This document shows positions 6,801-30,448 of a DNA stretch of 39,088 bases, piece after piece (position 1 is the first letter of the stretch; every line of letters begins with the position of its first letter). The position numbers were made by a program, and so were the translations under genes. Source of the stretch: a virus. Its lineage: Duplodnaviria; Caudoviricetes. The stretch spans positions 1-39,088 of the IMG/VR virus record IMGVR_UViG_3300033146_000459, one strand, 5' to 3'. Below the pieces are notes generated by a model. The model did no database searches. It saw only the letters and a program-made list of their open reading frames with translations, and was not told the DNA's origin.

Positions 6801-9398
6801 ATGGGAGTTACATACGGTAGTTCAAGCAGATCATCTAGTTCTAAAAAATCATCTAGTTCAAGAAAATCATCTAGTTCAAGAAAATCATCTAGTTCATCAA
6901 GCAGATCTAGTGGTCCAGTAACTACATCTTCACTTAAAAGTAGGGCGGGACAAAAATCATATGACGGAGGTAAAACTTGGTCAGGTGGTAGTTCTTCAAG
7001 TAGTTCTTCGAGTAGTTCTTCAAGGAGTAGTTCTAGTTTAACTTCTCATCAAAAAGCTAATATAGCTGCTTTAGAGGCACGAGGAGATATGGCTGGTGCA
7101 AACAAGCTTAGAAGTGCAATGGGAGTTTCATCGAATGGTTCCTCAAGTTCTTCTAATAGTACATATAATTCAAGGGGGACGAGTGGTAGAACTGGAATTT
7201 CAAGCAATGTTACTTATATGAATCATGGATACTATGGTAGTCCATCGACTTTAAACGGGGTAGCTAATGCTGATTCTTTAAATAAATGGAACGCAAAAAA
7301 AACAATTATACAAGAAAGTGAAGCTAGAATGAGAGCACAGGGAGCTAGATTCGCAGATGACCCTAATTATTCTGGTCCAGATAAAGGTTCTTATTCAACT
7401 AATAGAGGAATGGATGGTAAGGGTTCTAGAGCTTATAAAAATGGAGAATATCAAACTTCATATACGCCAGAGGGGGATAAGTTTTACGAAAGTAAATGGG
7501 AACAAACAGATGGGGGAGGAATGAATCCACGTATGAATGAATTAAGTGGACAACAGTATGAGTTTTCTGATAAAAACAGAGTAGAAGATGATGTGTACGG
7601 AACATACCAAACAGGACAAGATAATAAATTAGCAGGAGTAGATTTTACTAATTACCAAAAGGGACTAGCTAATGTAAGTAAAAATTTTGGATTTGATATA
7701 GAAGATACTGGTATTGATATGGGAGAATTAGAATCTCACGTTAAAAATCTAGCCTTAGAAAAAGGGGTAGATATTACAAATGAAAATGTTTTATTAAAAG
7801 CTGCTCATGAAATAGCTGTTGGAACAGCGGAGAGAAACCTACAGTTTGCTATGGCTACTAGTGCAATGTCTAGCGAGGTGGCTCAATCAGATTACGATTT
7901 GACAATAATGCAGTTAAATAGAAGAGCTAATAAAACAGAAGGTAATCTTGAAGATCAGGCTAATCTCTTAGAAAGAGCCTATGAAAATCAAGCAGCTCAA
8001 TTAGAATATTTAGTTGACGCAGATGTAGTGATGTTGGAACAAGGTAAAAACAATGCAATACGAAGAGCTAAACTAATGTTTGGAGCTGATCTAACAAGTT
8101 CCACAACCGGATTAGAGTTTTTATCTAATATAGAACAATCCTACGAGGATAAGATTAGAAGCACAAGACAAGACTATACTTTTAAATTAGAAGGTATAGG
8201 TTTACAATATGAAGGATCGCAGTTGAAAATAGCAGCGATGTACGATGATATTAATATGAAAGCTACTGAAACTATTGAAAATGCTTATCAGACTTTGACT
8301 AAAGTGAAACAAGAAGCTTATATGCAATCAATGGGAGATATAAATACTTATTATACAGCAGCAAGACAAGCTGACTTAAGTTATATAGAATCTACATTTT
8401 CAGCAATGAAAGAAGCTAGATTGGAACAGGAACAAGCTCAAAACTTAGTAATGAAACAAGAACAACATAATTTAGTTATGCAAAAAGGATGGCAAACATT
8501 AGAAAGTGGAGGTTATAAGAATGTGGCTGATCGAGCACTTTTGGGCATTGATACTGTGTTAGAAGGTCATTCAGGAACTTTAGCTGATAGAAACAATAAT
8601 CCAGGTAATTTAAGAGATCCAAAAACAGGAGAGTTTAGACAGTTTGAAAGTCCACAGGCAGGTTTTACAGCAATGGTTCAAGATCTTACTGCTAAATTAA
8701 CAGGGAATAGTCCAGCCATTAGAAACAAACTAGGTAGAAATGCTAAAACTTTATTAGATGTTATAAGTGTTTATGCACCTAAAGAAGATAATAACGATCC
8801 TAATAGTTATGCAAATGCAGTAGCTAATGCAATGGGAGTTAGTCCTAATGAACCAGTAGCTAATTTAATACCGAAAGTAAATGAGTTAGCAAAAGCAATG
8901 GCAAAACACGAAGGATTTACTGGGGAGATATTGTTCGCTAAAGATTTAAAAGATAACGATTCGTCTTATCCAGGACTCACCGATGAACAAGCTATTAATG
9001 ATATCATGTCAGGTAATATGACTTATGCTCAAATGAATGATCTTTATAATGAAAAACCTCATTTAAGAAAGAAAGTCGAAGAGAAACAAATAGAAGGAAT
9101 GTCAACAGGAATATTCGAAAGTTATTTAGAGCATATAGATAAATCTGTTGAAGAGATAATAGAATATAATTCTGGATTAGGTAAGAATGATACGCCGGCA
9201 GTTTCTATAAAGGATATATTAGATGCACCAGAAGAATTACAGGAGCAAATTAAATTAAAAGCTATTCAAGTGAGAAATGAAATCAGTCAAAAATATCAAG
9301 ATGAAGGAACTGGAGGTATGTGGTTCACAGATGAAAGAGCCGCAAGAAAACAAAGGGAATCATTACAAGAATTAATTAATCAATTAAATGCATTATAA
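6801..9398 (+). CDS. Putative ejection protein: Ser-rich N-terminus, coiled coil, lysozyme-like domain
   Basis: RNNNPGNLR...F..PQAG...YAPKEDNNDPNSY...AMAKHEG virion muramidase-like motif at ~8580-8920. Confidence 0.65.
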   Translation: MGVTYGSSSRSSSSKKSSSSRKSSSSRKSSSSSSRSSGPVTTSSLKSRAGQKSYDGGKTWSGGSSSSSSSSSSSRSSSSLTSHQKANIAALEARGDMAGANKLRSAMGVSSNGSSSSSNSTYNSRGTSGRTGISSNVTYMNHGYYGSPSTLNGVANADSLNKWNAKKTIIQESEARMRAQGARFADDPNYSGPDKGSYSTNRGMDGKGSRAYKNGEYQTSYTPEGDKFYESKWEQTDGGGMNPRMNELSGQQYEFSDKNRVEDDVYGTYQTGQDNKLAGVDFTNYQKGLANVSKNFGFDIEDTGIDMGELESHVKNLALEKGVDITNENVLLKAAHEIAVGTAERNLQFAMATSAMSSEVAQSDYDLTIMQLNRRANKTEGNLEDQANLLERAYENQAAQLEYLVDADVVMLEQGKNNAIRRAKLMFGADLTSSTTGLEFLSNIEQSYEDKIRSTRQDYTFKLEGIGLQYEGSQLKIAAMYDDINMKATETIENAYQTLTKVKQEAYMQSMGDINTYYTAARQADLSYIESTFSAMKEARLEQEQAQNLVMKQEQHNLVMQKGWQTLESGGYKNVADRALLGIDTVLEGHSGTLADRNNNPGNLRDPKTGEFRQFESPQAGFTAMVQDLTAKLTGNSPAIRNKLGRNAKTLLDVISVYAPKEDNNDPNSYANAVANAMGVSPNEPVANLIPKVNELAKAMAKHEGFTGEILFAKDLKDNDSSYPGLTDEQAINDIMSGNMTYAQMNDLYNEKPHLRKKVEEKQIEGMSTGIFESYLEHIDKSVEEIIEYNSGLGKNDTPAVSIKDILDAPEELQEQIKLKAIQVRNEISQKYQDEGTGGMWFTDERAARKQRESLQELINQLNAL
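6828..6897 (+). repeat. 18-bp tandem repeat (AAATCATCTAGTTCAAGA-like, ~4 copies) encoding KSSSSR
   Basis: Read directly in the sequence. Confidence 0.85.
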
Positions 9399-12300
9399 TG
9401 TCAATTTTTGGAGATATAAGGAACATGTTCAAAGAAGAAGATGAGGAACAGGATTATTTAAACGATGTCACTACAGATGTTTATAATAAACTAGGAGACA
9501 GAGGAAAGCAAGTTTATAACGAACAGATAGTTAAAAGAGATACACTTAGTATTCCACAGAACATAGCAAATAACGCAGGTAGTATAGGAAGCTGGAGTAT
9601 TAGTCAAGGTATTCAATCCGGTGGCTCTATGAATGATCTAGTGAATATAGCTTCTAGAACCACACCCAAGGATAATATAGCTAGTTATGCGGGTATGGGA
9701 TTTGGTGGTATGTTGAAAAAAGATAAAAACTTTGGAATAAAAGCAAAGGCTTCTGTAGATACTATATCTAATGAAATTAACGATTGGCTTGGTGATTCAG
9801 TTGAGTACGAGGGATTCGCAGATGGTCCTCAAGATTTAACTAGACGAGCATTTGTTAATTTTTCGGGTATATATAATACAGGTACGGAATACACAAAAAA
9901 TTTAAAGAAAACTAGTTATCTAGAATTACTAGATGAAACGTACGATATAGCAAAGAAATTAAATCCATTAGATAGGTTTACACCATCAGTCGATAAACCT
10001 TTCACTAAAATGGGTAAATGGTTGGGTATAGAGAATAAACCAATGGAAGATTATCTCAGTAAAGAAGCTAATGCAAAAGTTGATAACTTTTTAAATGCTG
10101 TACAAAGTGAAACAAAAGATTTTCAAACTGCTTATAGGGGTAAGGATAATGCTTGGACTTTCGTAGGTGATGTAGTTGGTAGTTTGGCACAATACGCGAC
10201 TATAGGAACTATAACTGGTTCGCCTACAGCAGTAAGTGTATTTTCAGGTTTACAAGGAGCTGATCAAGTTTTAGAAATCTTGGATGGTACCGATATGACA
10301 CCAGCAGAAAAAGCAAGTGTTTCTACGATAGGTGGGATAATGAATGCATGGATAGAACAATTCGGAGGTGTTAAATTCGGGGATTATAATATATTAAAAT
10401 ACGCACCAAAAGGAAGTAATATGTTACAAACTTTTTCTAAGATGAAGGGAGCAGTTCTTTTAAAGAAGTTTAGTAATATATTTACAAAAGTAATGTTACC
10501 AGAATCTATGGAGGAAGTAGCGCAGAGTTCCGTAATGGATGCCATACAAAAAATATACACAGATAAAGAACTTGGTTTTAATACTCCTGAGTATTGGAAA
10601 GGAAAAGGTATGGAAGCTTTAGGAGGAGCAGTAGGTGGTATATTCGGAGGTGGTATGAGTTTTATGTCTAATCAAGTTACAAGAAGAGGTATAAAAAAAT
10701 CACTTAAAAAGAATTTAATTAAAAATGGTTTTGAAGAAGCTGATGCTAATTTTATTGCTGATGATATGGTAAGACAGTTTGAAACTAACGAGAATAACGA
10801 GAATAAAGAAAGTGAATACTTAAATATAGCTATCAAAAATAGAATAGAAAACAGCTTACGAGAAGATGGTCCTCAAATGAAGATGAGTGTTGAAGAAGAA
10901 AGTGGAACCACTTTAAAAACCCTTGAAAAATTAAAGGGAAGAAAGATCGTATCTAAACAGTTTATTTTAGACTTGACTAATTCTGGAGATATCAAGCAGG
11001 TTGAAAGGGATATGATCAGAAAGGAACTAGAAGGAATGCCTGATAAGATAAATATTGAAGAGTTTACAAATAGAGTTAAAACGAATTTAATTCCTTTATA
11101 TAGGAGTGGAGAGGGAGAAGGACCTAGTTTAATGTACGAAAACGTTGCTTTGCAAGACGAAGAAAGGGGGGACGTTGAAAATTATAACGCCCACGTATAT
11201 GAAAGTCCTATTGAGAATTCGGCAGGAGGGGTTCATTTTGATATGGATTTAAACCCTAATTATTTTGCGCATACTCGAGTTGAAGATATGGCAGACGGAG
11301 AAACAAGGAGAGTAATTGAAATACAATCTGATTTATTTCAAAAGGGAGGGTTAGAAAAAAAGATAAGACCTCAAGGAGAATTAGATAGAGGATACGATTA
11401 CGATTATAAGAAACTTAAAAGAAACTTGAGTATACATAGAGATCAGCTCGATGTTGATACAGTAGAGGCTTACGAAAAGGTTGAGGAGCAAAGAAATAAA
11501 CTTAAACCATATCGTGATACATATCACGAAAGAATTATAAGAGAAGAAATAAAACAAGCAGCTCAGGACGGTAAAAGTAAAATTCAAATACCAGTTGGGA
11601 AAACAGCTATGAAAATAGAGGGATTATACCAAGAAGGAGATATTGCTGATTGGGAGATTGATAGAGGGGATGGATATGAACCCCTAGTTCCTAATATGCT
11701 AGAGGAAGGATTAAAGATAATGGATCGCAGTAATGACCATTGGATAATAACGCAAGTCGGAATAAGAGGAGAGTTCCGTGCGGTTCCTTTTGAGACACGA
11801 GAAAGTTACATAACTCAAATAAGAGACTACCATGAAATGATGGGTACAGAGGCAGATATGCCTACATCAGAAAGTGATATAGATGAAGCCATAAAAGAAA
11901 TGCAAGAAGAGACAGTGGGCTCCGAGGGGTTTAGTGTTCACCCAGGGGCCGTAAATATAGGCAGTCCTATTTATAGGTTCTATGAAAAAACAATTGGTAA
12001 GTTTGTAAAAAATAAATACAATGCTCAGAGGGTTACAGATGAGAGAGGAATAGAGTGGTGGGAGATTGATGTGAAAGAATCCTACGGAAAAGACCCTGTG
12101 CAAGCATTCAGGTTAGGACGCAAAGGAAAATCCAATGTTACTAAAAAAGAATTAATTGCTAAGTTGAATGAAATCCTACCTAAAGGAACTTTGACACTAA
12201 AAGTAGTAGAAGAAATATTAGAAGAAGGAAATTCAAAAGGAAATGTAAAAAAACTAGGTTCCTATTTTAATAAAATTATAACAGTATTGGGCGAGAATGG

Positions 12301-15300
12301 TTTAGTATCTGATCAAACTGGTTACCACGAAGCATTTCATCAAATATGGGATATGTCTTTAACTAGGCAAGAGAAAGCAGGGATTACAAGAGAAATTTAT
12401 GAAAAGTATCCTGAGAAGATTGAATCGTATTCTAAAAAATATAATTCAGGTGTTGCTCAAGAAGTACTGGCTGATTTATTTGCAGATTATATAAAAGGAC
12501 AAACTAATAACAAACCAACAACATTTACAGGTAAAATTTTAGAGTTCTTTGAGAAATTATTTGAATACTTCTCAAACATAGATACAGATAATATCGATGC
12601 AGTGTTTGACAAGATAGCTCAAGGAGAAATGGTATCACGTGAGACTAGGGACAGTGGAGGAGAGAAGTTCTCAAGCCTAGAAGATTTAACCAAGAGTCCT
12701 AACTTCAAGAGCTGGTTTGGTGATAGTAAAGTGGTGGATGATGAAGGGAATCCTTTAGTTGTTTATCATGGAACAAATCAAGAATTTTCAAATTTTGATA
12801 AGGGTATGTTGGGAAATATGACGAAAGCTTCAAGTGCAGAAAAAGGGTTTTTCTTTACAGATAGCAAAGGAGAAGCTAAATCCTATTCAGAATTAGCAGG
12901 AAGGACTCAGATTAGAAATCAAAAAGAATTTGATGCAAAGATGGATCAGTTGAATAATGAGTTAGACAACGCAACAAGGAACAGAAATTGGGATGAGCAA
13001 GAAAGGATCACAGAAGAAATAAGTGATTATGAAATATCTTTCACAAGGGAAGATGTTAAGAAAGGTCTGAAAGTATATGAAACATATTTAAGAATTGAGG
13101 ATTTAATGATAGTTGACTTTGGTGGTGAAGGAGCATTTGATAGTTCGACTGGTGGTATTTCAAAACTGATTATAGAGGCGAAGGCAAAAGGACACGATGG
13201 AATTATGTTGAAAAACATATTAGATTCTCCAGATTTTTCAGGTAAGCCTACAAATCATTATGTAGCTTTTGATCCTAACCAAATCAAGTCAGTAGATAAC
13301 AAAGGAGGATTTTCTATTTACAATGATAATATATATATGTCTACCTCCTCAGAACAACAAGGGATCTATAAAGAAGCGTTGAAATACGATAGTGCAGAGG
13401 AGTTTGTGGAGAGTCAGAGTAGTATAGCCCCTAATAAAAAAGGGTATAGTGATGAATTTAAAGGGAGAACTGAATATAAAGAAGCTATACAGGAATTACA
13501 AGAGAACACAGGAGAAGTCTTAGTTAAAGACACGATTGATATAAGTAAACTAGAAGCTACTCAAACAACCAAAGATATTGAAAGACTTACTAGAGTTAGA
13601 AAAGAGATAAATGATGGAATAAAAAATCCTTTAGTAGTTGAGTATCAGTCTCCTAATTTTTATACAGTTATGGATGGGAATACTAGGCTAGGAGTTTATA
13701 AAGAACTAGGAATTAAAAAAGTTCCTATTGTAGTGAATAAAAGTGGTGCAAAGAATATCAAAACCAAACAACAACTAACAGAAATCTACAACAAAGCACA
13801 CGAAGGGAAGATGATGAGTGTTGAAGAAGAGGTTAAGACTAAAAAAGAAACAGCACATGAAGAATATGAGAGATTACAAATAAAATTAAAAGAAATAGAT
13901 AATAACAGGAAAGAACTTGAATTGACTAAGGGAGAAGAGTACGTGAAGGTTATCACTAAACGCATGAAAGAATTAAAAGTTGGTAGAAGGTATACCAAAG
14001 AAGAATATGATACACAATTAAAAGATATCAAGAACTTTATAAGTAAAACTATTAAAATAGGTAAACTTGATAAACTTAATAAGCGTGAACTAAATAAACT
14101 TATTGCTGTGATGCGAGATACTACTTATACACCACAGAAACTAGAAAAGGCTTATAAAAGTATTGTGAAGATACAAGAGCGTTTAGATAAAGACTTATAC
14201 ACACAAAAAATAGATAAATTGATCAAACGTTCAACCCCGACAGTAACAAGCGGGAGAAAAACAGGTAAACTCGGACATAGCCAAAAGATGTTTGATTATA
14301 TCAATCTTAATAGAAATATGACTCAAGTTCACGTGGATGCGAGATTAGGGGCTATTATGGAAAGCGAGAATATTACACCGGAATCTATGGCTGAAAGTGT
14401 TTGGTTACAAATGATACCCACAAAAAAGATGAGCTTGGATCAACTCAAAAGCATATATGAGGAGTTATTGGTTCAATACGATAAAGGAAGAGCCGAACAA
14501 GATATAAAAGACTTTAATAGACAAAGTGAAAAACAATTAACAAAGGAAGCTGTTAAAGATCTACAAGAAGCTGATCCAAAAAGAAGACAAATCAGTGAAA
14601 ACAACTTTGGTAAGATTAAAAAAACTTATTTGAAAGTTAGAGATTTTATGAATGCTAATTTTGGTTTAGAATATTTACTAGATGTACTAGACGAATCTGA
14701 TAAAACCACTAAAGAATATGGTGGCTTAATGGTTAAGTTTAATGACAGGTTATTAAAAGCTCAAAACGAAAGAGAAGCTGGCTTAGAGAAGGTTAGTAAT
14801 ACTATAGCTAAAAAGGCTCAAGAAATATGGGGTAAAAAAGTAGCAGGAGCTTTTGTTAATAACAAGACAAAAAAAGTACAAGTAAATGGTGAATGGTTCA
14901 CTCAGAACGAATTAGCTAAACGATATCAAGAATTTAAAGATCCTACTTTAAATAAGACTTTTGAAGAAATGGGTTATACTCAAGAAAAGAAAGCTGCCAT
15001 GGTTAAAGCTTTAGATCCAAAGTTAAAAGAATTTTCTGATTGGTTAGTGAAAGACTTTTATCCAGCTTATTACGATAGGATCAATCCTGTTTACAGAGAA
15101 AAGTTTGGAATAGATATGCCGAAGAATAAATTTTATTCTCCTATCGCTAGGGTAGGTTTTGACACAGACGAGAATAGTCTAATGGCAGAAGATAATAGAG
15201 CAAGAGCTACTGCAAATAATAAATCTTTGAAATTGAGAATGGGAAGTTCTTTGGAATTAAAGAAATTGGATGTAGTTAATACAGTATCAAACCATATACA

Positions 15301-16636
15301 ACAAATGGAACACTTCATAGCTTTATCTGGATGGTCCTCGGAAGCACAAAGTGTATTCAGAGATCCACAAGTAGCTAAACTACTTAAAAGGAATCAAGGT
15401 GAAGATTTTTATAGTATGTTGATGGATGCGATTGACGCTTCTATCAATGACAAAAAAGATGGAAAAACTTATAAAGCTCTTGATACAATAAGGGGTAATA
15501 TTGCTCTAGGTATGACAAGTTTAAGTCCTACAATTTTTATAAAGCAGCTTACTTCTATACCAGCTATGTGGCAAGATGTTAAAATGATAGAGGCTATGAA
15601 ATATTCAGCAGTATTTTTAGCTAATCCGAGAAAAGCTTTCAAGGAATTAAAAGAAGCTAGTGCTATGTTTAGGCAAAGAGGAGGACATATAGACCGAGAT
15701 CTGCAAATAGCTTTGGGTAAGAACTTAGAATCGATTGTATCTAAGAAGACAACCATTAAAGATATAATGGGTATGCCTACGAAAGTTGGTGATCAGATAG
15801 CTATTGCCCTTGGTGGATACGCCGTATATAGAGCTACACTGGCTAAAACTGGTAGTAAAGATCAAGCAATGCAACAATTCAATAAATCTTATAATAGATC
15901 GCAGCAATCAGGAGCTATACAATATCAAAGTTTTATAGAGAGATCTGGAGGTAGTATAGGAAAGTTATTTTCTATGTTTATGAGTACACCAAAAGCTTAT
16001 ACATCTATAATGCTTAGTAATGTTAGAAATCTAAAGGCGGGTAGAATAAGTAAAAAACAATTTACTAAAACTTTTGTAATACAACAATTCTTGTTACCTA
16101 TGATATTTCAATTTATATCAAGTGGATTCAAATGGGATGACGAGGATATGATGTGGGCGGTTTTATTGTCACCATTGAGAGGATTTATAGGAGTTAGAAA
16201 TATAATCAATACAGCTGTTGATTGGTATACAGGAAAACCTTGGTGGAAAACTACAGCAAGTGGATTACCAGTTTTTTCTCCATTGTTGGATATGTTTGAT
16301 GGAATAGACGGATTACAAAAAGACGATATAAGTATGTCAGATATAATGATAGAAGTGGCTAAGATTATAGATTTTGGATTAACACCTATGTCGGGAATAG
16401 ATTTATCTAAAACTATAAAGACGGGAACTCAAATGCTTAAAGCTCCAGAGAATTGGAGATATGCACTAGGTTTTTCTAATTACACAGTAGATGGTCCAAA
16501 GAAAAAGAAAAATACCTCAAAAAAGAGCGATGATTATTCAAAATTCAATAAGTTTGCTAAGTTTAATAAATTCAATAAGTTTGCTAAGTTTGATAAATTT
16601 GCTAAGTTTAATAAGTTTAATAAGTTTAATAAATAA
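9398..16636 (+). CDS. Giant polyvalent virion/ejection protein (zincin metallopeptidase, ADP-ribosyltransferase-like, ParB-like modules)
   Basis: 2412 aa; HEAFH...EVLAD (~12326-12475); FKSWFGDSKVVDDEGNPLVVYHGT...GFFFT...YVAFDPNQIKS (~12700-13290); PLVV...VMDGNTRL...LGIKKVP (~13630-13730). Confidence 0.75.
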   Translation: MSIFGDIRNMFKEEDEEQDYLNDVTTDVYNKLGDRGKQVYNEQIVKRDTLSIPQNIANNAGSIGSWSISQGIQSGGSMNDLVNIASRTTPKDNIASYAGMGFGGMLKKDKNFGIKAKASVDTISNEINDWLGDSVEYEGFADGPQDLTRRAFVNFSGIYNTGTEYTKNLKKTSYLELLDETYDIAKKLNPLDRFTPSVDKPFTKMGKWLGIENKPMEDYLSKEANAKVDNFLNAVQSETKDFQTAYRGKDNAWTFVGDVVGSLAQYATIGTITGSPTAVSVFSGLQGADQVLEILDGTDMTPAEKASVSTIGGIMNAWIEQFGGVKFGDYNILKYAPKGSNMLQTFSKMKGAVLLKKFSNIFTKVMLPESMEEVAQSSVMDAIQKIYTDKELGFNTPEYWKGKGMEALGGAVGGIFGGGMSFMSNQVTRRGIKKSLKKNLIKNGFEEADANFIADDMVRQFETNENNENKESEYLNIAIKNRIENSLREDGPQMKMSVEEESGTTLKTLEKLKGRKIVSKQFILDLTNSGDIKQVERDMIRKELEGMPDKINIEEFTNRVKTNLIPLYRSGEGEGPSLMYENVALQDEERGDVENYNAHVYESPIENSAGGVHFDMDLNPNYFAHTRVEDMADGETRRVIEIQSDLFQKGGLEKKIRPQGELDRGYDYDYKKLKRNLSIHRDQLDVDTVEAYEKVEEQRNKLKPYRDTYHERIIREEIKQAAQDGKSKIQIPVGKTAMKIEGLYQEGDIADWEIDRGDGYEPLVPNMLEEGLKIMDRSNDHWIITQVGIRGEFRAVPFETRESYITQIRDYHEMMGTEADMPTSESDIDEAIKEMQEETVGSEGFSVHPGAVNIGSPIYRFYEKTIGKFVKNKYNAQRVTDERGIEWWEIDVKESYGKDPVQAFRLGRKGKSNVTKKELIAKLNEILPKGTLTLKVVEEILEEGNSKGNVKKLGSYFNKIITVLGENGLVSDQTGYHEAFHQIWDMSLTRQEKAGITREIYEKYPEKIESYSKKYNSGVAQEVLADLFADYIKGQTNNKPTTFTGKILEFFEKLFEYFSNIDTDNIDAVFDKIAQGEMVSRETRDSGGEKFSSLEDLTKSPNFKSWFGDSKVVDDEGNPLVVYHGTNQEFSNFDKGMLGNMTKASSAEKGFFFTDSKGEAKSYSELAGRTQIRNQKEFDAKMDQLNNELDNATRNRNWDEQERITEEISDYEISFTREDVKKGLKVYETYLRIEDLMIVDFGGEGAFDSSTGGISKLIIEAKAKGHDGIMLKNILDSPDFSGKPTNHYVAFDPNQIKSVDNKGGFSIYNDNIYMSTSSEQQGIYKEALKYDSAEEFVESQSSIAPNKKGYSDEFKGRTEYKEAIQELQENTGEVLVKDTIDISKLEATQTTKDIERLTRVRKEINDGIKNPLVVEYQSPNFYTVMDGNTRLGVYKELGIKKVPIVVNKSGAKNIKTKQQLTEIYNKAHEGKMMSVEEEVKTKKETAHEEYERLQIKLKEIDNNRKELELTKGEEYVKVITKRMKELKVGRRYTKEEYDTQLKDIKNFISKTIKIGKLDKLNKRELNKLIAVMRDTTYTPQKLEKAYKSIVKIQERLDKDLYTQKIDKLIKRSTPTVTSGRKTGKLGHSQKMFDYINLNRNMTQVHVDARLGAIMESENITPESMAESVWLQMIPTKKMSLDQLKSIYEELLVQYDKGRAEQDIKDFNRQSEKQLTKEAVKDLQEADPKRRQISENNFGKIKKTYLKVRDFMNANFGLEYLLDVLDESDKTTKEYGGLMVKFNDRLLKAQNEREAGLEKVSNTIAKKAQEIWGKKVAGAFVNNKTKKVQVNGEWFTQNELAKRYQEFKDPTLNKTFEEMGYTQEKKAAMVKALDPKLKEFSDWLVKDFYPAYYDRINPVYREKFGIDMPKNKFYSPIARVGFDTDENSLMAEDNRARATANNKSLKLRMGSSLELKKLDVVNTVSNHIQQMEHFIALSGWSSEAQSVFRDPQVAKLLKRNQGEDFYSMLMDAIDASINDKKDGKTYKALDTIRGNIALGMTSLSPTIFIKQLTSIPAMWQDVKMIEAMKYSAVFLANPRKAFKELKEASAMFRQRGGHIDRDLQIALGKNLESIVSKKTTIKDIMGMPTKVGDQIAIALGGYAVYRATLAKTGSKDQAMQQFNKSYNRSQQSGAIQYQSFIERSGGSIGKLFSMFMSTPKAYTSIMLSNVRNLKAGRISKKQFTKTFVIQQFLLPMIFQFISSGFKWDDEDMMWAVLLSPLRGFIGVRNIINTAVDWYTGKPWWKTTASGLPVFSPLLDMFDGIDGLQKDDISMSDIMIEVAKIIDFGLTPMSGIDLSKTIKTGTQMLKAPENWRYALGFSNYTVDGPKKKKNTSKKSDDYSKFNKFAKFNKFNKFAKFDKFAKFNKFNKFNK
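10882..10899 (+). repeat. 18-bp direct repeat, copy 1 (GATGAGTGTTGAAGAAGA)
   Basis: Identical to 13813-13830; both encode MSVEEE. Confidence 0.85.
13813..13830 (+). repeat. 18-bp direct repeat, copy 2
   Basis: Identical to 10882-10899. Confidence 0.85.
16541..16633 (+). repeat. 9-bp tandem repeat x10 encoding KF(N/A/D)
   Basis: AA(A/G)TT(T/C)(AAT/GCT/GAT) units running up to the stop codon. Confidence 0.95.
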
Positions 16637-20122: not shown

Positions 20123-20174
20123 AAAAGGGTTTACTTTTATAAAAATATTATATATAATCAATTCGTAACATTAA
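20123..20174 (+). promoter_or_regulatory. Promoter TTTACT-N17-TATAAT with leader TTCGTAACATTAA
   Basis: -35 at 20130-35, -10 at 20153-58; homologous to the 23758 and 27672 elements. Confidence 0.8.
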
Positions 20175-23754: not shown

Positions 23755-23757
23755 AAC

Positions 23758-23814
23758 AAAAAGGGTTTACTTTCATAAAAATTCAGTATATAATAAATTC
23801 GTATCATTAACAAA
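23758..23814 (+). promoter_or_regulatory. 57-bp promoter/leader repeat, copy A
   Basis: TTTACT 23766-71, TATAAT 23789-94; 3 mismatches versus 27672-27728. Confidence 0.9.
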
Positions 23815-23818
23815 ATAT

Positions 23819-27673: not shown

Positions 27674-27728
27674 AAAGGGTTTACTTTCATAAGAATTCAG
27701 TATATAATAAGTCCGTATCATTAACAAA
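27672..27728 (+). promoter_or_regulatory. 57-bp promoter/leader repeat, copy B
   Basis: TTTACT 27680-85, TATAAT 27703-08. Confidence 0.9.
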
Positions 27729-27733
27729 GAAAT

Positions 27734-28045
27734 ATGGAAAGAAAGAAAAGAACACCAGCGAAAAAAATAATCTTTAGCTGGATTGAGAGGACTCCGAATG
27801 TATGGGTTCACCCGTACGAAATGGTAGAGTTTGGAAAACAAGTATTCGATTCAATGTTTTTATCTCACACCTTTCATCGTCAGATGTTACGAATGGCTGG
27901 AGAACAAACAAATGAGTTAGAAAAGAAAGTAGACCAAAATGGATATGTGATGTTTAGAAAAGCAAGAACAGATAATATCAAAGAGATATTAAAGGTAAAT
28001 CCTTACAAGGAGGTTAAGAAAAATAATAATCAATCTTTATTTTAA
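27734..28045 (+). CDS. Small basic protein, putative winged-helix; likely paralogue of 23819..24100
   Basis: Shared residues and promoter cassette. Confidence 0.55.
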   Translation: MERKKRTPAKKIIFSWIERTPNVWVHPYEMVEFGKQVFDSMFLSHTFHRQMLRMAGEQTNELEKKVDQNGYVMFRKARTDNIKEILKVNPYKEVKKNNNQSLF

Positions 28046-28055
28046 TAAAAAACAT

Positions 28056-28475
28056 ATGAGATTCAAAAAACTTAGAGATGTAAAATCTCCAACAAAAGCT
28101 TATAGTGGTGACGCTGGTATTGACATTTACTCACCGAGTTCTGTGCATATTAATCCAGGTCAAACTATTCAAGTGAAATTAGGTATCGCAATCGAGATAG
28201 AAAGGAATCAAGTTGCTATAATGAGTGAAAGATCAGGTATGGCAATAAAGTATGGTATAACATCTATTGGTAATATTATTGATTCCGGTTATAGAGGTGA
28301 AATATCAATTATGTTGTTCAATTCGTCCACTAATTCTGTTTCATTTAATACAGGGGATAAAATTGGTCAAATAGTTATATGTCAATTAGGGCTTGAATCT
28401 TCTTTCGTGCAAGAAGTATACGAGTTGTCAGAATCAGAAAGGGGAGAAAAAGCACATTATTCATCAGGTAAATAA
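28056..28475 (+). CDS. dut: Trimeric dUTPase
   Basis: AGIDI, RSG, IIDSGYRGEI, GDKIGQ, SERG...SSG motifs I-V. Confidence 0.92.
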   Translation: MRFKKLRDVKSPTKAYSGDAGIDIYSPSSVHINPGQTIQVKLGIAIEIERNQVAIMSERSGMAIKYGITSIGNIIDSGYRGEISIMLFNSSTNSVSFNTGDKIGQIVICQLGLESSFVQEVYELSESERGEKAHYSSGK

Positions 28476-28489
28476 TTTAATATTAAGAT

Positions 28490-29254
28490 ATGTCAAAGAA
28501 AAATAATTACAATACAACACAACTTGATCCAGATAAAGCATTTGAAAAACATATTTACCATAGAGATATGTTTGCTCATTATTTGAGGTGGACTCACGCT
28601 CTTAAAAGAATAAAAGCCGATCAAAATGTTTTAGATTTCGGATGTGGGACAGGTGCATTAGCAGAGGTTTTCTATAGGAATAGATTTAAATGTGCTAGTT
28701 ATATCGGTTTGGATATAAAGAAGTTATCAATCGAAAAAGCTAATACAAAATTTGAAAAAGTAAATTGGGTAAATTTTTATCAAAAAGATTTGGTCAAAGA
28801 TTCTGTAAGTGAGTTCGAGAATACAAAATGGGATATGATTACGTCATTTGAAGTGATTGAACATATTGGAAAACAAAATATTGATCGATTCCTTAATAAT
28901 GTGAAATCCTTAATGGATAAAAATACAACGTTTTTGATGTCAACACCTAATTACGATGGAGATATTGGTGCCGCTGGTAATCACACATATGATTCTGGAG
29001 ATGGCGAAGGAGTTCAAGAACAAGAATTTGATCATTTAGAACTTGGTTTAATATTAAACAAGCATTTTAATATAGTTGAAAAATACGGAACATTTTCTAG
29101 TCAAAAAGATTACAAACACTTAATGAATGAATGGCAAACAAATATGTTTAATGAATTAAGTAAATATTATGATGTTGATTTACTTTCTGTTATGATGGCA
29201 CCTATATTTCCAGAAGAGTCAAGAAACTGTTTGTGGGTATTAAAACTTAAATAA
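28490..29254 (+). CDS. Class I SAM-dependent methyltransferase (small-molecule/O-MTase type)
   Basis: VLDFGCGTG, YIGLDI, SFEVIEHI, STPN; no DPPY/NPPY or PC DNA-MTase catalytic motif. Confidence 0.85.
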   Translation: MSKKNNYNTTQLDPDKAFEKHIYHRDMFAHYLRWTHALKRIKADQNVLDFGCGTGALAEVFYRNRFKCASYIGLDIKKLSIEKANTKFEKVNWVNFYQKDLVKDSVSEFENTKWDMITSFEVIEHIGKQNIDRFLNNVKSLMDKNTTFLMSTPNYDGDIGAAGNHTYDSGDGEGVQEQEFDHLELGLILNKHFNIVEKYGTFSSQKDYKHLMNEWQTNMFNELSKYYDVDLLSVMMAPIFPEESRNCLWVLKLK

Positions 29255-29259
29255 TTAAT

Positions 29260-29532
29260 ATGAATATACTTAAAAAAGCAGATCAGATTATTAATAATAG
29301 GTCTGAGGAAAAAGAAAGAGAATATGGTGACTTTAATGAATCGATGGAAAGAGCTGCTAGAATATCATCAGATTTATGTAAAAAGGAGATTACCCCGGAA
29401 GATATGTTCAAATGCATGCTTGGATTAAAATTAAGTAGACTAGCTAATTCACCAAAAGAAGATACGTTACTTGATATTTGTGGGTATGCAGCAGGTTTAA
29501 ATAATTATATAAATAAAAATAACAATAATTAA
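29260..29532 (+). CDS. DUF6378-like all-alpha protein (putative dNTP pyrophosphohydrolase)
   Basis: ILKKADQII...REYGDF..SMERAA...MLGLKLSR...DTLLDICGYA. Confidence 0.75.
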   Translation: MNILKKADQIINNRSEEKEREYGDFNESMERAARISSDLCKKEITPEDMFKCMLGLKLSRLANSPKEDTLLDICGYAAGLNNYINKNNNN

Positions 29533-30413
29533 TGAAAAAATTTACAAATTTTAATGATCTCTATATTGATTCAACCCAGGATATATGTAAACACGGGAAA
29601 CCTAGTTCACCTAGAAACATGAAATGTTGGGAGAAATTAAATTACTGTTTGCAGTTAACGGATACATCACAATCACTGTGTACTATAAAAAATAGAAAAT
29701 TAAATTACGCATTTAATATCATAGAAAAACTTGAATATTTATATGGAGAACAAGATCCAGATAGAATTTGTTTCTATAACAAGAATTTTAGAAATTTCAT
29801 TAATGAAAACACAGGGAAGTTTGATGGTGCTTATGCTCCTAGAATCAAAAGGCAAATTATGTATATTTATGATTTACTTAAAAGAGATCCTGATACTAGA
29901 CAAGCTATTATAAATATTAACAACGAATCAGATAAGCACGAATCAAAAGATGTACCATGCACTATATCATTTCAATTTATCCTTAGAGAAGGAAAACTAC
30001 ATATGACTACTTATATGCGTAGTAATGATATATTGTGGGGAACTCCTTATGATATTAACGCTTTCTGTTTCATCCAGAGTGCTCTCGCTTTGTGGTTAGA
30101 TGTAGAAACTGGCACATATACACACTTCGTTGGTTCTATGCATGCCTATGATGATTTTATAGATACATTAGAGAAACTAGATGGTTCGGAGGTAGTCGCA
30201 AATGAGGATAAAAAATGGGATATAAAAGATATACATGAATCTTACAATGAACTCGAAACGTTTTTTCAATTAGAAAAAGGATTGAGAGAGAATAATAATT
30301 ATATTTCACCTGATGGTTTTTTAAGATCAAAGACATTGATAAGTTTTTATAATATATTACACGCTTATTGTATTAAGAAAAATAACAAGAAAACATTCAG
30401 AGAAGATCAGTAA
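29532..30413 (+). CDS. Thymidylate synthase-family enzyme, probable dCMP hydroxymethylase/methylase
   Basis: DTRQA, catalytic PC, MRSND, and GTPYD with Asp where dUMP-specific TS has Asn; HFVGSMHAY. Confidence 0.8.
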   Translation: MKKFTNFNDLYIDSTQDICKHGKPSSPRNMKCWEKLNYCLQLTDTSQSLCTIKNRKLNYAFNIIEKLEYLYGEQDPDRICFYNKNFRNFINENTGKFDGAYAPRIKRQIMYIYDLLKRDPDTRQAIININNESDKHESKDVPCTISFQFILREGKLHMTTYMRSNDILWGTPYDINAFCFIQSALALWLDVETGTYTHFVGSMHAYDDFIDTLEKLDGSEVVANEDKKWDIKDIHESYNELETFFQLEKGLRENNNYISPDGFLRSKTLISFYNILHAYCIKKNNKKTFREDQ

Positions 30414-30419
30414 ATAGAT

Positions 30420-30448
30420 TTTACTTTTGGGCAAAAATAGTATAAAAT
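30420..30448 (+). promoter_or_regulatory. Promoter TTTACT-N17-TAAAAT
   Basis: Same -35 and spacing as the other promoters. Confidence 0.65.

Follow-up and report, generated by a model that had tools for sequence, protein, structure and literature searches.

We propose that this phage carries a four-gene cassette that may place 5-methoxymethylcytosine in its DNA, through synthesis of 5-hydroxymethyl-dCMP, incorporation by the host and subsequent O-methylation, a reading which, judged from sequence, has in our view about an even chance of being right. It draws on three aspartates in a thymidylate synthase (TS) homologue, the co-occurrence of this enzyme with a methyltransferase, the absence of DHFR and carbamoyltransferase genes, the matches of the methyltransferase to Hen1, its kept ExxEH motif, and the restriction digests of the cultured phage AXL3. 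In the window (the whole stretch of 39,088 nucleotides that was analysed), the contiguous dUTPase, methyltransferase, DUF6378-like and TS genes described in the initial annotation were found as four + strand ORFs with their catalytic residues kept:

27680..27708, + strand: sigma70-like promoter element TTTACTTT-N11-AGTATATAAT, a repeat with a putative promoter function
27734..28045, + strand: 103-aa ORF, first behind the promoter element, with weak unnamed PHROG matches only
28056-28475, + strand: trimeric dUTPase (PF00692, E 1e-25)
28490-29254, + strand: class I SAM methyltransferase (Methyltransf_23, E 3e-20)
29260-29532, + strand: DUF6378, a small all-helical protein (profile match E 9e-18)
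29532-30413, + strand: TS homologue, predicted dCMP 5-hydroxymethylase (PF00303, E 1.5e-20)
29949, 29958, 30027 and 30051, + strand: TS key residues by alignment, respectively Asp140 (E. coli 143), Cys143 (146), Asp166 (169) and Asp174 (177)
30420..30448, + strand: next copy of the promoter element, 6 bases past the TS stop

The same gene order (dUTPase-methyltransferase-DUF6378-TS) was seen again in two related loci, L023 and L024, so the clustering is not due to chance. The promoter element is present in three exact copies in the window versus none in 100 shuffles, with a fourth copy at 20130 carrying 2 mismatches, and a generic promoter scan of the window stayed at chance level. The copy in front of the cassette is likely to be the start of its transcript and the copy behind TS likely marks its right boundary, and the 103-aa ORF, unrelated to the gene at the same place in L024, may be a passenger. 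The record is linear according to IMG/VR and 51% complete according to CheckV. Since an ORF whose start lies 23 codons from the record end continues without a frame change into the ORF at the record start, and since the window encodes head, tail, lysis and replication-initiator genes, we judge the record to be probably complete despite the CheckV value. The ORF at this junction had no relative among the collected loci, so that homology lent no support to circularity, no tRNAs were found in the window, and PADLOC returned for it only a generic match to MADS mad2.

In the TS homologue, which reads MRSNDILWGTPYD, Asp174 takes the place of the canonical TS Asn (in 'PFN') and of the MilA Asp when the proteins are aligned. 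Asp140 lies within KDVPC and Asp166 within RSND. The catalytic Cys (C143) and the phosphate-binding Arg and Ser residues (R28, R123, R163, S164) are invariant across 36 sequences, as are H204 and Y206. All NCBIfam TS models score the protein below cut-off, the Asn177 of canonical ThyA being replaced by Asp174. The dCMP specificity first predicted from an Asp where dUMP-specific TS has Asn is supported, as Asp174 corresponds to E. coli 177 and the uracil controls SPO1-type gp29 and MW2 both have Asn177. On the same two controls we reject the idea that dUMP hydroxymethylases share Asp177, in which case the prediction would lose its basis. Aspartate at 143, 169 and 177 is the published signature of dCMP hydroxymethylases, an acidic residue at E. 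coli position 143 (Leu143 there) being the hydroxymethylase rule and D169N the signature of 5-hydroxy-dCMP synthases of the RB69 gp48 type (PMC13326640). Asp143 is present in the hydroxymethylases MilA, SPO1-type gp29 and MW2. The dCMP methylases of Xp12 and PaMx74 also have an Asp177 TS homologue, and dCMP deaminase, part of the likeness to this 5-methylcytosine pathway, is common next to the methyltransferase in relatives of the window; their TS, however, has Asn143 and Pro147 with an adjacent DHFR, and the window has neither.

Of the three products initially considered, hydroxymethyl-, methyl- and hydroxy-dCMP, the first is thus retained, since the kept Asp169 argues against a 5-hydroxy-dCMP synthase and Asp143, together with the lack of DHFR, argues against a methylase. 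We are highly confident in 5-hydroxymethyl-dCMP as the predicted product. With TS narrowed in this way, the 5-methoxy-C offered earlier as an O-methylated end product becomes unlikely, and 5-methoxymethyl-C is the candidate. Residue rules are correlations, and 5 of 7 deaminase-linked Asp177 TS assayed made 5mdCMP (10.1101/2024.12.05.627091), which would favour a TS producing 5-methyl-dCMP, 5-hydroxy-dCMP or dTMP beside a methyltransferase that is otherwise employed or makes 5-methoxy-C; with Asp143, Asp169 and Asp177 all there, D169N absent, and Asn143 plus DHFR in the methylase controls, we regard this as very unlikely. A 5hmU route via dCMP deaminase is also unlikely, with no deaminase in the window and AXL3 DNA cut at A/T-only sites. 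Scanning viral contigs with a single TS sequence gave no matches. The closest solved relative and best PDB match is the CMP hydroxymethylase MilA (5jnh, 5b6d; E 1e-25 for the single sequence, 4e-48 for the profile), which shares Asp at 143, 169 and 177. Unlike the window enzyme, MilA serves antibiotic synthesis on CMP and has Lys and Ala in place of Arg123 and Ser164. These two positions presumably set the preference for ribose or deoxyribose.

The methyltransferase is a member of a sizeable phage family. We found 863 relatives, and at E 1e-10 the family extends to 599 clusters (50% identity), with human-gut, marine and freshwater-type records among them. As the initial annotation had noted, it is without the catalytic motifs of DNA N4/N6 or C5 methyltransferases, (D/N/S)PP(Y/F/W), PC and ENV being all missing. 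Across 119 representatives (50% identity), conservation falls on H24-R25-D26, E121-x-x-E124-H125, S151-T152-P153, H165, E179, G200-T201-F202 and R245-N246. Searched against the PDB, the family profile gave Hen1 2'-O-methyltransferases as its top five sequence matches, with modest E-values (5e-10 to 3e-7) and spurious Rab11 matches just behind. E121, E124 and H125, kept in 115, 117 and 114 of the 119 representatives, align with the Hen1 metal ligands Glu796, Glu799 and His800; this ExxEH motif occurs in other class I methyltransferases too. H165 (kept in 117/119) lies in the same loop as the fourth ligand of Hen1, H860, to which it may correspond, and hhalign leaves it unpaired with the Hen1 DH. 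The likeness to Hen1 extends to the DFGCG SAM motif and STPN; however, it covers the core only, at about 25% identity, the score against the Hen1 family model TIGR04074 is 33 bits (below the cut-off of 340), and the window enzyme has neither RNA-binding domains nor an RNA-repair partner and sits in a context of DNA cytosine modification. In structure searches Hen1 reached Z 17.0-17.1 versus a top Z of 19.3, with many N-, O- and C-methyltransferases alongside, so the modelled fold is generic class I and O-methylation is not singled out by it. We infer that oxygen is the methyl acceptor.

Methylation of (hydroxymethyl)cytosine at N4, yielding N4-methyl-5hmC at the nucleotide or DNA level, would agree equally well with the co-occurrence of methyltransferase and TS described below (230/263 loci) and with the Foldseek top rows, among which are N-methyltransferases of small molecules and N7-methyltransferases of the mRNA cap. 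Yet the (D/N/S)PP(Y/F) motif of DNA amino-methyltransferases is absent, and such chemistry makes a hydroxymethylase unnecessary whereas 229 of 230 linked TS are of this type, so that we consider it unlikely. The top VIA structure match is 4htf (Z 19.3), which we take to be SmtA/CmoM, and this would suit an enzyme that makes or transfers a SAM derivative by CmoA/CmoB/CmoM-like carboxymethyl chemistry, alone or with a C5-methyltransferase-like partner. Such a partner is seen in 6 fusion proteins that join the methyltransferase domain to one resembling C5-cytosine DNA methyltransferases; 5 of the 6 have Arg at the DNMT1 motif X Asn, as does CmoX, whose Arg350 there binds carboxy-SAM (PMC12783734). 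Against this, no CmoA, CmoB or CmoM model was among the best 25 of 33 NCBIfam matches and no CmoA among the structure matches listed, tblastn matched 5 phage records only and no Synechococcus phage, and the fused domains have NPPC versus the SPPC of CmoX. The carboxymethylcytosine system of CmoA, CmoX and CmoY (PMC12783734), which resembles the fused relatives in combining a class I SAM-fold enzyme with a C5-methyltransferase-like protein carrying the motif X Arg, moreover needs no TS and modifies GC sites post-replication, whereas the window is without C5-methyltransferase or ligase; we find carboxymethyl chemistry improbable here.

Returning to O-methylation, the fusions point to DNA as the target of the methyltransferase, which we somewhat favour over the free nucleotide. 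A supply of TET-made rather than TS-made 5hmC to the fused proteins is unsupported, as the fused loci L191, L193 and L205 have nearby Asp-type TS; Tet_JBP was found in 0/12 records, in a search run without a positive control.

Co-occurrence of the methyltransferase with Asp-type TS, proposed earlier as a check, proved to be strong. TS is present in 230 of 263 methyltransferase loci and all of Asp143, Asp169 and Asp177 in 229 of those 230, which ties a dedicated methyltransferase to the cytosine pathway, and the dependence spans 42 clusters at 70% identity. Nine of 80 methyltransferase clusters are without TS in the locus, six of them with a TS elsewhere in the record (Asp177 in 6/6, Asp143 in five). 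One linked TS, that of L273, has Asn143. From these sequence associations the methyltransferase quite probably acts on a hydroxymethylated cytosine base. In the other direction, only 5 of 34 clusters of TS relatives have the methyltransferase in the locus, and those without it often carry GT, TAGT, HMUDK or ADDT genes; in one (L284) a GT sits between dUTPase and TS. Among 48 methyltransferase-bearing records, none had DHFR (both controls positive, 2/2) or a carbamoyltransferase, and 10 had a tested glycosyltransferase or 5-hmdU kinase, so the exclusivity towards other capping enzymes is not strict. The MetaGPA supplement shows no significant enrichment of methyltransferases among modified contigs, Methyltransf_23 included (27 vs 1436, corrected p 1). 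The DNA could also contain plain 5hmC, with the methyltransferase directed at RNA ends (Hen1-like 2'-O-methylation), a protein or a pathway-linked metabolite. Hen1 is indeed an RNA enzyme, the methyltransferase lies far from TS in at least 6 records, and many TS relatives do without it; but an RNA or protein target leaves both the near-complete dependence on a hydroxymethylase and the fusion to DNA methyltransferase-like domains unexplained, and we hold this to be rather unlikely.

The remaining two genes are frequent in the module (a dUTPase relative in 73 and DUF6378 in 77 of 103 loci). The C-terminal motif of the dUTPase is KAHYSSG, versus a G(F/L)(G/N)ST-type motif in 11 aligned relatives. 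The suggestion that DUF6378 depletes dCTP gained no support: hhalign gave it a probability below 1% and small alignments to MazG/PRA-PH, its single-sequence model (pLDDT 60) had a best structure-match Z of 5.5, and neither the profile comparison nor the structure search of this low-confidence model linked it to MazG-type enzymes. It may act as a dCTP pyrophosphatase.

As far as the record is complete, the 52 ORFs of the window include no polymerase, kinase or glycosyltransferase, and six-frame searches, in each of which the positive control was detected, gave no Pol A, Pol B, thymidylate kinase, GT2 or Glyco_trans_1_2, in line with the original view that host enzymes would be needed. The lack of a phage polymerase is true of the window and untypical of the module, as Pol A occurs in 38 of the 48 records and polymerase-less carriers are a minority. 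In E. coli expressing T4 gp42 and gp1, the polymerase incorporates 5hm-dCTP in vivo (10.1101/2024.12.05.627091). That incorporation relied on T4 gp1, and the window has no dNMP kinase.

AXL3 has a methyltransferase relative (28% identical) and an Asp-type TS, and of 37 restriction enzymes only two, with A/T-only sites, cut its DNA (PMC7504290), a resistance that plain 5hmC explains equally. In the window, G/C palindromic 6-mers are at an observed/expected ratio of 0.67, versus 0.85-0.90 in Xp12, PaMx74 and AXL3. This continued avoidance suggests that cytosine substitution is partial, which we think rather likely, and that protection may be incomplete. Strong palindrome avoidance, the changed dUTPase motif, the lack of both kinase and polymerase, and methyltransferase genes split next to an intact-looking TS in two relatives (L281 and L282) would also be compatible with a decaying or inactive cassette and canonical DNA in the window phage. 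However, none of the four ORFs is disrupted, catalytic residues are retained, and three near-complete records (G001, G002, G020) retain the module without Pol A, Pol B or kinase, making decay most improbable.

We hypothesise, then, a pathway to 5-methoxymethylcytosine in which the TS homologue would convert dCMP to 5-hydroxymethyl-dCMP, the kinases of the host and its replicative polymerase would place hydroxymethylcytosine in part of the phage DNA, and the phage methyltransferase would methylate the hydroxyl, with the dUTPase and possibly DUF6378 tuning the nucleotide pool. The methyl cap would take the role of glucose in T4, blocking restriction enzymes and hiding the hydroxyl from enzymes that cut hydroxymethyl-DNA, and would cost SAM only. 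The T4 pathway relies on gp42 dCMP hydroxymethylase, gp1 kinase, gp56 dCTPase/dUTPase and alpha/beta-glucosyltransferases (gene roles in part from PMC8670742 and PMC13326640). Both pathways include a TS-family member carrying Asp143/Asp177 and an enzyme that hydrolyses dUTP, and both have a further enzyme in the capping slot, whereas the window has a class I SAM methyltransferase instead of glycosyltransferase, dNMP kinase and DNA polymerase, and substitution is probably partial. In the 5hmC carbamoyltransferase system (MetaGPA, PMC8670742) a dCMP hydroxymethylase is likewise paired with one small-group transferase capping the hydroxyl, through another enzyme and another donor. We found no description of methylated hmC in phage, or of this module, in the literature searched. 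To our knowledge, the caps described for 5hmC in phages are either sugars or carbamoyl groups; Iyer et al. reportedly surveyed TS-linked modifying enzymes in 2013 and may have noted the methyltransferase family.

More tentatively, and with somewhat less than even confidence, a widespread phage family may write 5-methoxymethylcytosine as a new base, with a metal-dependent O-methyltransferase derived from Hen1 that modifies 5hmC within DNA. Small phages that have no polymerase or kinase of their own would use the host replisome and a portable, promoter-bounded cassette. If true, this ether would add a new base to those known from nature and would cap 5hmC at the lowest possible cost. It would be made by a common methyltransferase family and be a concrete candidate to account for the hitherto unexplained resistance of AXL3 to restriction. 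With its small footprint, a methylating enzyme selective for 5hmC would give 5hmC sequencing an alternative to T4 beta-glucosyltransferase, and the polymerase-less members offer a test of whether host replisomes alone sustain a modified-cytosine genome.

The four contiguous genes of the initial annotation are present as described, and the cassette they form is real, intact and widespread:

28056-28475, + strand, dUTPase
28490-29254, + strand, class I SAM methyltransferase (MTase)
29260-29532, + strand, DUF6378
29532-30413, + strand, thymidylate-synthase (TS) homologue

The same gene order was found again in two loci, L023 and L024. A sigma70-like element has three exact copies in the window (at 23766, 27680 and 30420; none in 100 shuffles) and a looser one at 20130. 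Since the copies at 27680 and 30420 flank the four genes together with an ORF of 103 aa, 27680-30413 is likely a single transcription unit. Two 60-base intergenic stretches bearing the promoter-like element (23755-23818 and 27674-27733) are nearly identical and could act as recombination points for cassette exchange. The final dUTPase motif, KAHYSSG, differs from 11/11 aligned relatives, which may indicate altered specificity or decay.

The best solved match of the TS homologue is MilA, a CMP 5-hydroxymethylase, both from the single sequence (E 1e-25) and with a 36-sequence profile (E 4e-48; next entry 3e-26). By the residue rule outlined in PMC13326640 (E. coli numbering), Asp177 directs the enzyme to dCMP, Asp/Glu143 to hydroxymethylation, and Asn169 marks 5-hydroxy-dCMP synthases. 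The control enzymes obey the rule as outlined there: uracil hydroxymethylases (SPO1-type and MW2) carry Asp143 and Asn177, and dCMP methylases (Xp12 and PaMx74) carry Asn143 and Asp177 with an adjacent DHFR. The window TS has Asp at all three positions, so that the Asp first noticed at the dCMP-determining position is confirmed as Asp177. DHFR was detected in both Xp12 and PaMx74 and in none of 48 MTase-bearing records, which were picked for length. Among the three products first proposed, hydroxymethyl-dCMP is thus favoured by Asp143, methyl-dCMP is disfavoured by Asp143 and the lack of DHFR, and hydroxy-dCMP by Asp169; on these residues the predicted product is 5-hydroxymethyl-dCMP.

The MTase belongs to a sizeable family, with 863 relatives in a near-length search (of which the top 120 share 55-63% identity) and 599 clusters at 50% identity in a profile search (E up to 1e-10). 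The closest Atlas clusters are viral, and a GTDB scan gave only 3 loci, each on a MAG contig. We collected 263 MTase loci, many from near-identical gut phages: the window, 15 loci, 4 annotated records, 3 from GTDB, and the best 80 of 468, of 325 and of 127. A TS lies within the locus in 230 of these 263 (71/80 MTase clusters at 90% identity, 33/42 at 70%), and it carries Asp143/169/177 in 229 of 230 (202 by pattern, 27 by eye), the remaining one being broken. Of nine clusters with no local TS, eight were checked: in six a TS stands farther off in the same record (Asp177 in 6/6, Asp143 in 5/6), and the other two were covered as fragments only, 12% and 38% complete; the ninth is a short contig. 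The link is one-way: among TS relatives (the best 80 of 390, forming 34 clusters) the MTase is in the locus in 5 clusters, and in a sixth case L293 shares its record with MTase locus L221. In L281 (671-1401) and L282 (about 870-1366) the MTase gene is broken into two frames, through either assembly error or loss. In L007, L001 and L015, a TS-deaminase-MTase module sits between terminase and the following structural genes, and the TS motif, DFICTN, differs from that of the window; in sequence identity, the MTase (57-60%) is more conserved than its TS partner (27-49%).

Where TS relatives lack the MTase, known hydroxyl-directed enzymes are often found: a glycosyltransferase (GT) in L284, lying between dUTPase and TS, further GTs in L278 and L289, a 5-hmdU kinase in L279, a kinase with a TAGT in L288, and a kinase with an amino acid:DNA transferase in L285 (scan of 86 of 145 listed ORFs). 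Alongside the MTase, at least one tested enzyme (GT or 5-hmdU kinase) occurs in 10 of the 48 records (5-hmdU kinase in 4, GT2 in 6, Glyco_trans_1_2 in 4, where one phage control out of two went undetected), and carbamoyltransferase in none, in a search without phage control. The MTase thus tends to occupy the capping slot, without exclusivity. L049, L030 and L094, about 50-kb Pol A phages of a clade whose metagenome records are titled human gut, have the MTase plus a 5-hmdU-kinase helical-domain gene adjoining an Asp177 TS, possibly giving two hmC modifications within one genome. Other methyltransferases lie near HMUDK or GT genes in two close TS relatives without the cassette-type MTase (L279:13190-13900 and L278:7954-9874; FkbM type and Methyltransf_24/25).

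The MTase is modelled as a class I Rossmann fold (pLDDT 85). Structure searches returned mixed N-, O- and C-methyltransferases (top Z 19.3; Hen1 Z 17), and by sequence the top five solved matches are all Hen1 enzymes. In Hen1, as described in PMC10781085, Glu796, Glu799, His800 and His860 hold a metal on the hydroxyl being methylated. MTase E121, E124 and H125 align with the first three of these ligands, H165 would be the fourth, and across 119 representatives each of the four is kept in 114-117. The simplest reading to unite the strict need for a hydroxymethylase, the capping slot and the Hen1-type metal site is that the MTase would O-methylate the hydroxyl of 5hmC.

Fusion of the MTase to a C5-cytosine DNA methyltransferase-like domain (6/108 longer relatives), and such domains as separate neighbours in L203, L212 and L268, suggest that the MTase works on DNA. 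These fusions also bear on a rival reading in which the MTase is tied to carboxy-SAM chemistry as in the CmoX system: in 5/6 fused domains the motif X residue is Arg, and in CmoX the Arg at this place binds carboxy-SAM (PMC12783734). No CmoA match for the MTase was found among the NCBIfam and structure matches listed. The divergent C5-MTase-like family recurs beside Asp-type TS genes (P0123, P0125-P0129; L191:9983-11899; L205:9920-12448; L203, L212, L268, L285, L289, L290, L293 and L298). Its fused members have the first SAM motif altered to FAGGF and a mostly CmoX-like Arg in motif X; the family occurs in genomes where the C5 position should be occupied already. In L215, L256-L258, L261 and L263 the MTase is immediately upstream of the terminase large subunit and distant from TS, suggesting late action on DNA.

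DUF6378 occurs in 77/103 loci of the first set. A PRA-PH-type pyrophosphatase adjoins the MTase in 60/80 loci of a distant subfamily, so a dCTPase is expected somewhere. The suggestion that DUF6378 may deplete dCTP gained no backing from profiles or fold searches, neither of which tied it to MazG-type enzymes.

Annotated phage matches to the MTase comprise five records only: two uncultured, PW916, and two of AXL3. AXL3 has consecutive genes for MTase, NTP pyrophosphatase, kinase, TS (Asp143/169/177) and dCMP deaminase. Of 37 enzymes, 2 cut its DNA, each at a site made up of A/T alone, and PMC7504290 does not identify the modification; the pattern shows genome-wide alteration of C or G, and it does not reveal a methyl cap. 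In the papers searched, neither methylated 5hmC nor the MTase family is described for phage DNA; the datasets behind PMC13229309 and its preprint, bioRxiv supplements and Iyer et al. 2013 may list the family. Sugar and carbamoyl caps are described in 10.1101/2023.12.21.572611 and PMC8670742. PMC13229309 and its preprint mention O-methyltransferases, left without a name, in the neighbourhood of dioxygenase genes, and raise O-methylation of 5hmU as a speculation.

The window is an entire virus record (39,088 bases, 33% G+C, genes all on the same strand). Profile annotation gives terminase, probable portal and capsid, SU10-type adaptor, large ejection-type proteins, M23 peptidase, holin, RecT/YqaJ recombination genes and a DnaD-like replication initiator, the portal and ejection labels being read from gene size and position. 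A 2412-aa polyvalent protein (9398-16636; ART-PolyVal ADP-ribosyltransferase domain at 1114-1304, weak ParB_N match) probably enters the host with the DNA by injection. No obvious Shine-Dalgarno motifs precede the genes, whose leaders are A/T-rich; this may hint at the host group. ORF annotation and further searches of the window found no DNA polymerase, dNMP kinase or glycosyltransferase, as first noted; these absences are less trustworthy because the record is linear (IMG/VR) and 51% complete (CheckV). In favour of completeness, an ORF starting 23 codons before the terminus reads in frame into the first ORF, a match expected by chance one time in three; a search for relatives of the joined ORF found none.

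Pol A is present in 38/48 MTase-bearing records, and Pol A, Pol B and a thymidylate-kinase-like gene are absent from the window and from three records of 90-92% estimated completeness. In such polymerase-less phages, host enzymes would place 5hm-dC into DNA. This is feasible: E. coli incorporates 5hmdC upon T4 gp42 and gp1 expression (as outlined in 10.1101/2024.12.05.627091), and 5hodC traces occur in DNA without a phage kinase (PMC13326640). G/C-containing palindromic 6-mers are avoided in the window (observed/expected 0.67; composition-matched non-palindromes 1.01 +/- 0.03) and in L023 and L024 (0.64). In the Xp12, PaMx74 and AXL3 stretches palindromic 6-mers stand at 0.85-0.90, a comparison that is no more than suggestive, these being high-G+C phages with other hosts; the avoidance fits partial substitution or recent gain.

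We conclude that the cassette represents a new form of the pre-replicative 5hmC pathway, in which the TS would supply 5hmC and the MTase would methylate its hydroxyl; that it makes a new DNA base we regard as about evenly balanced.
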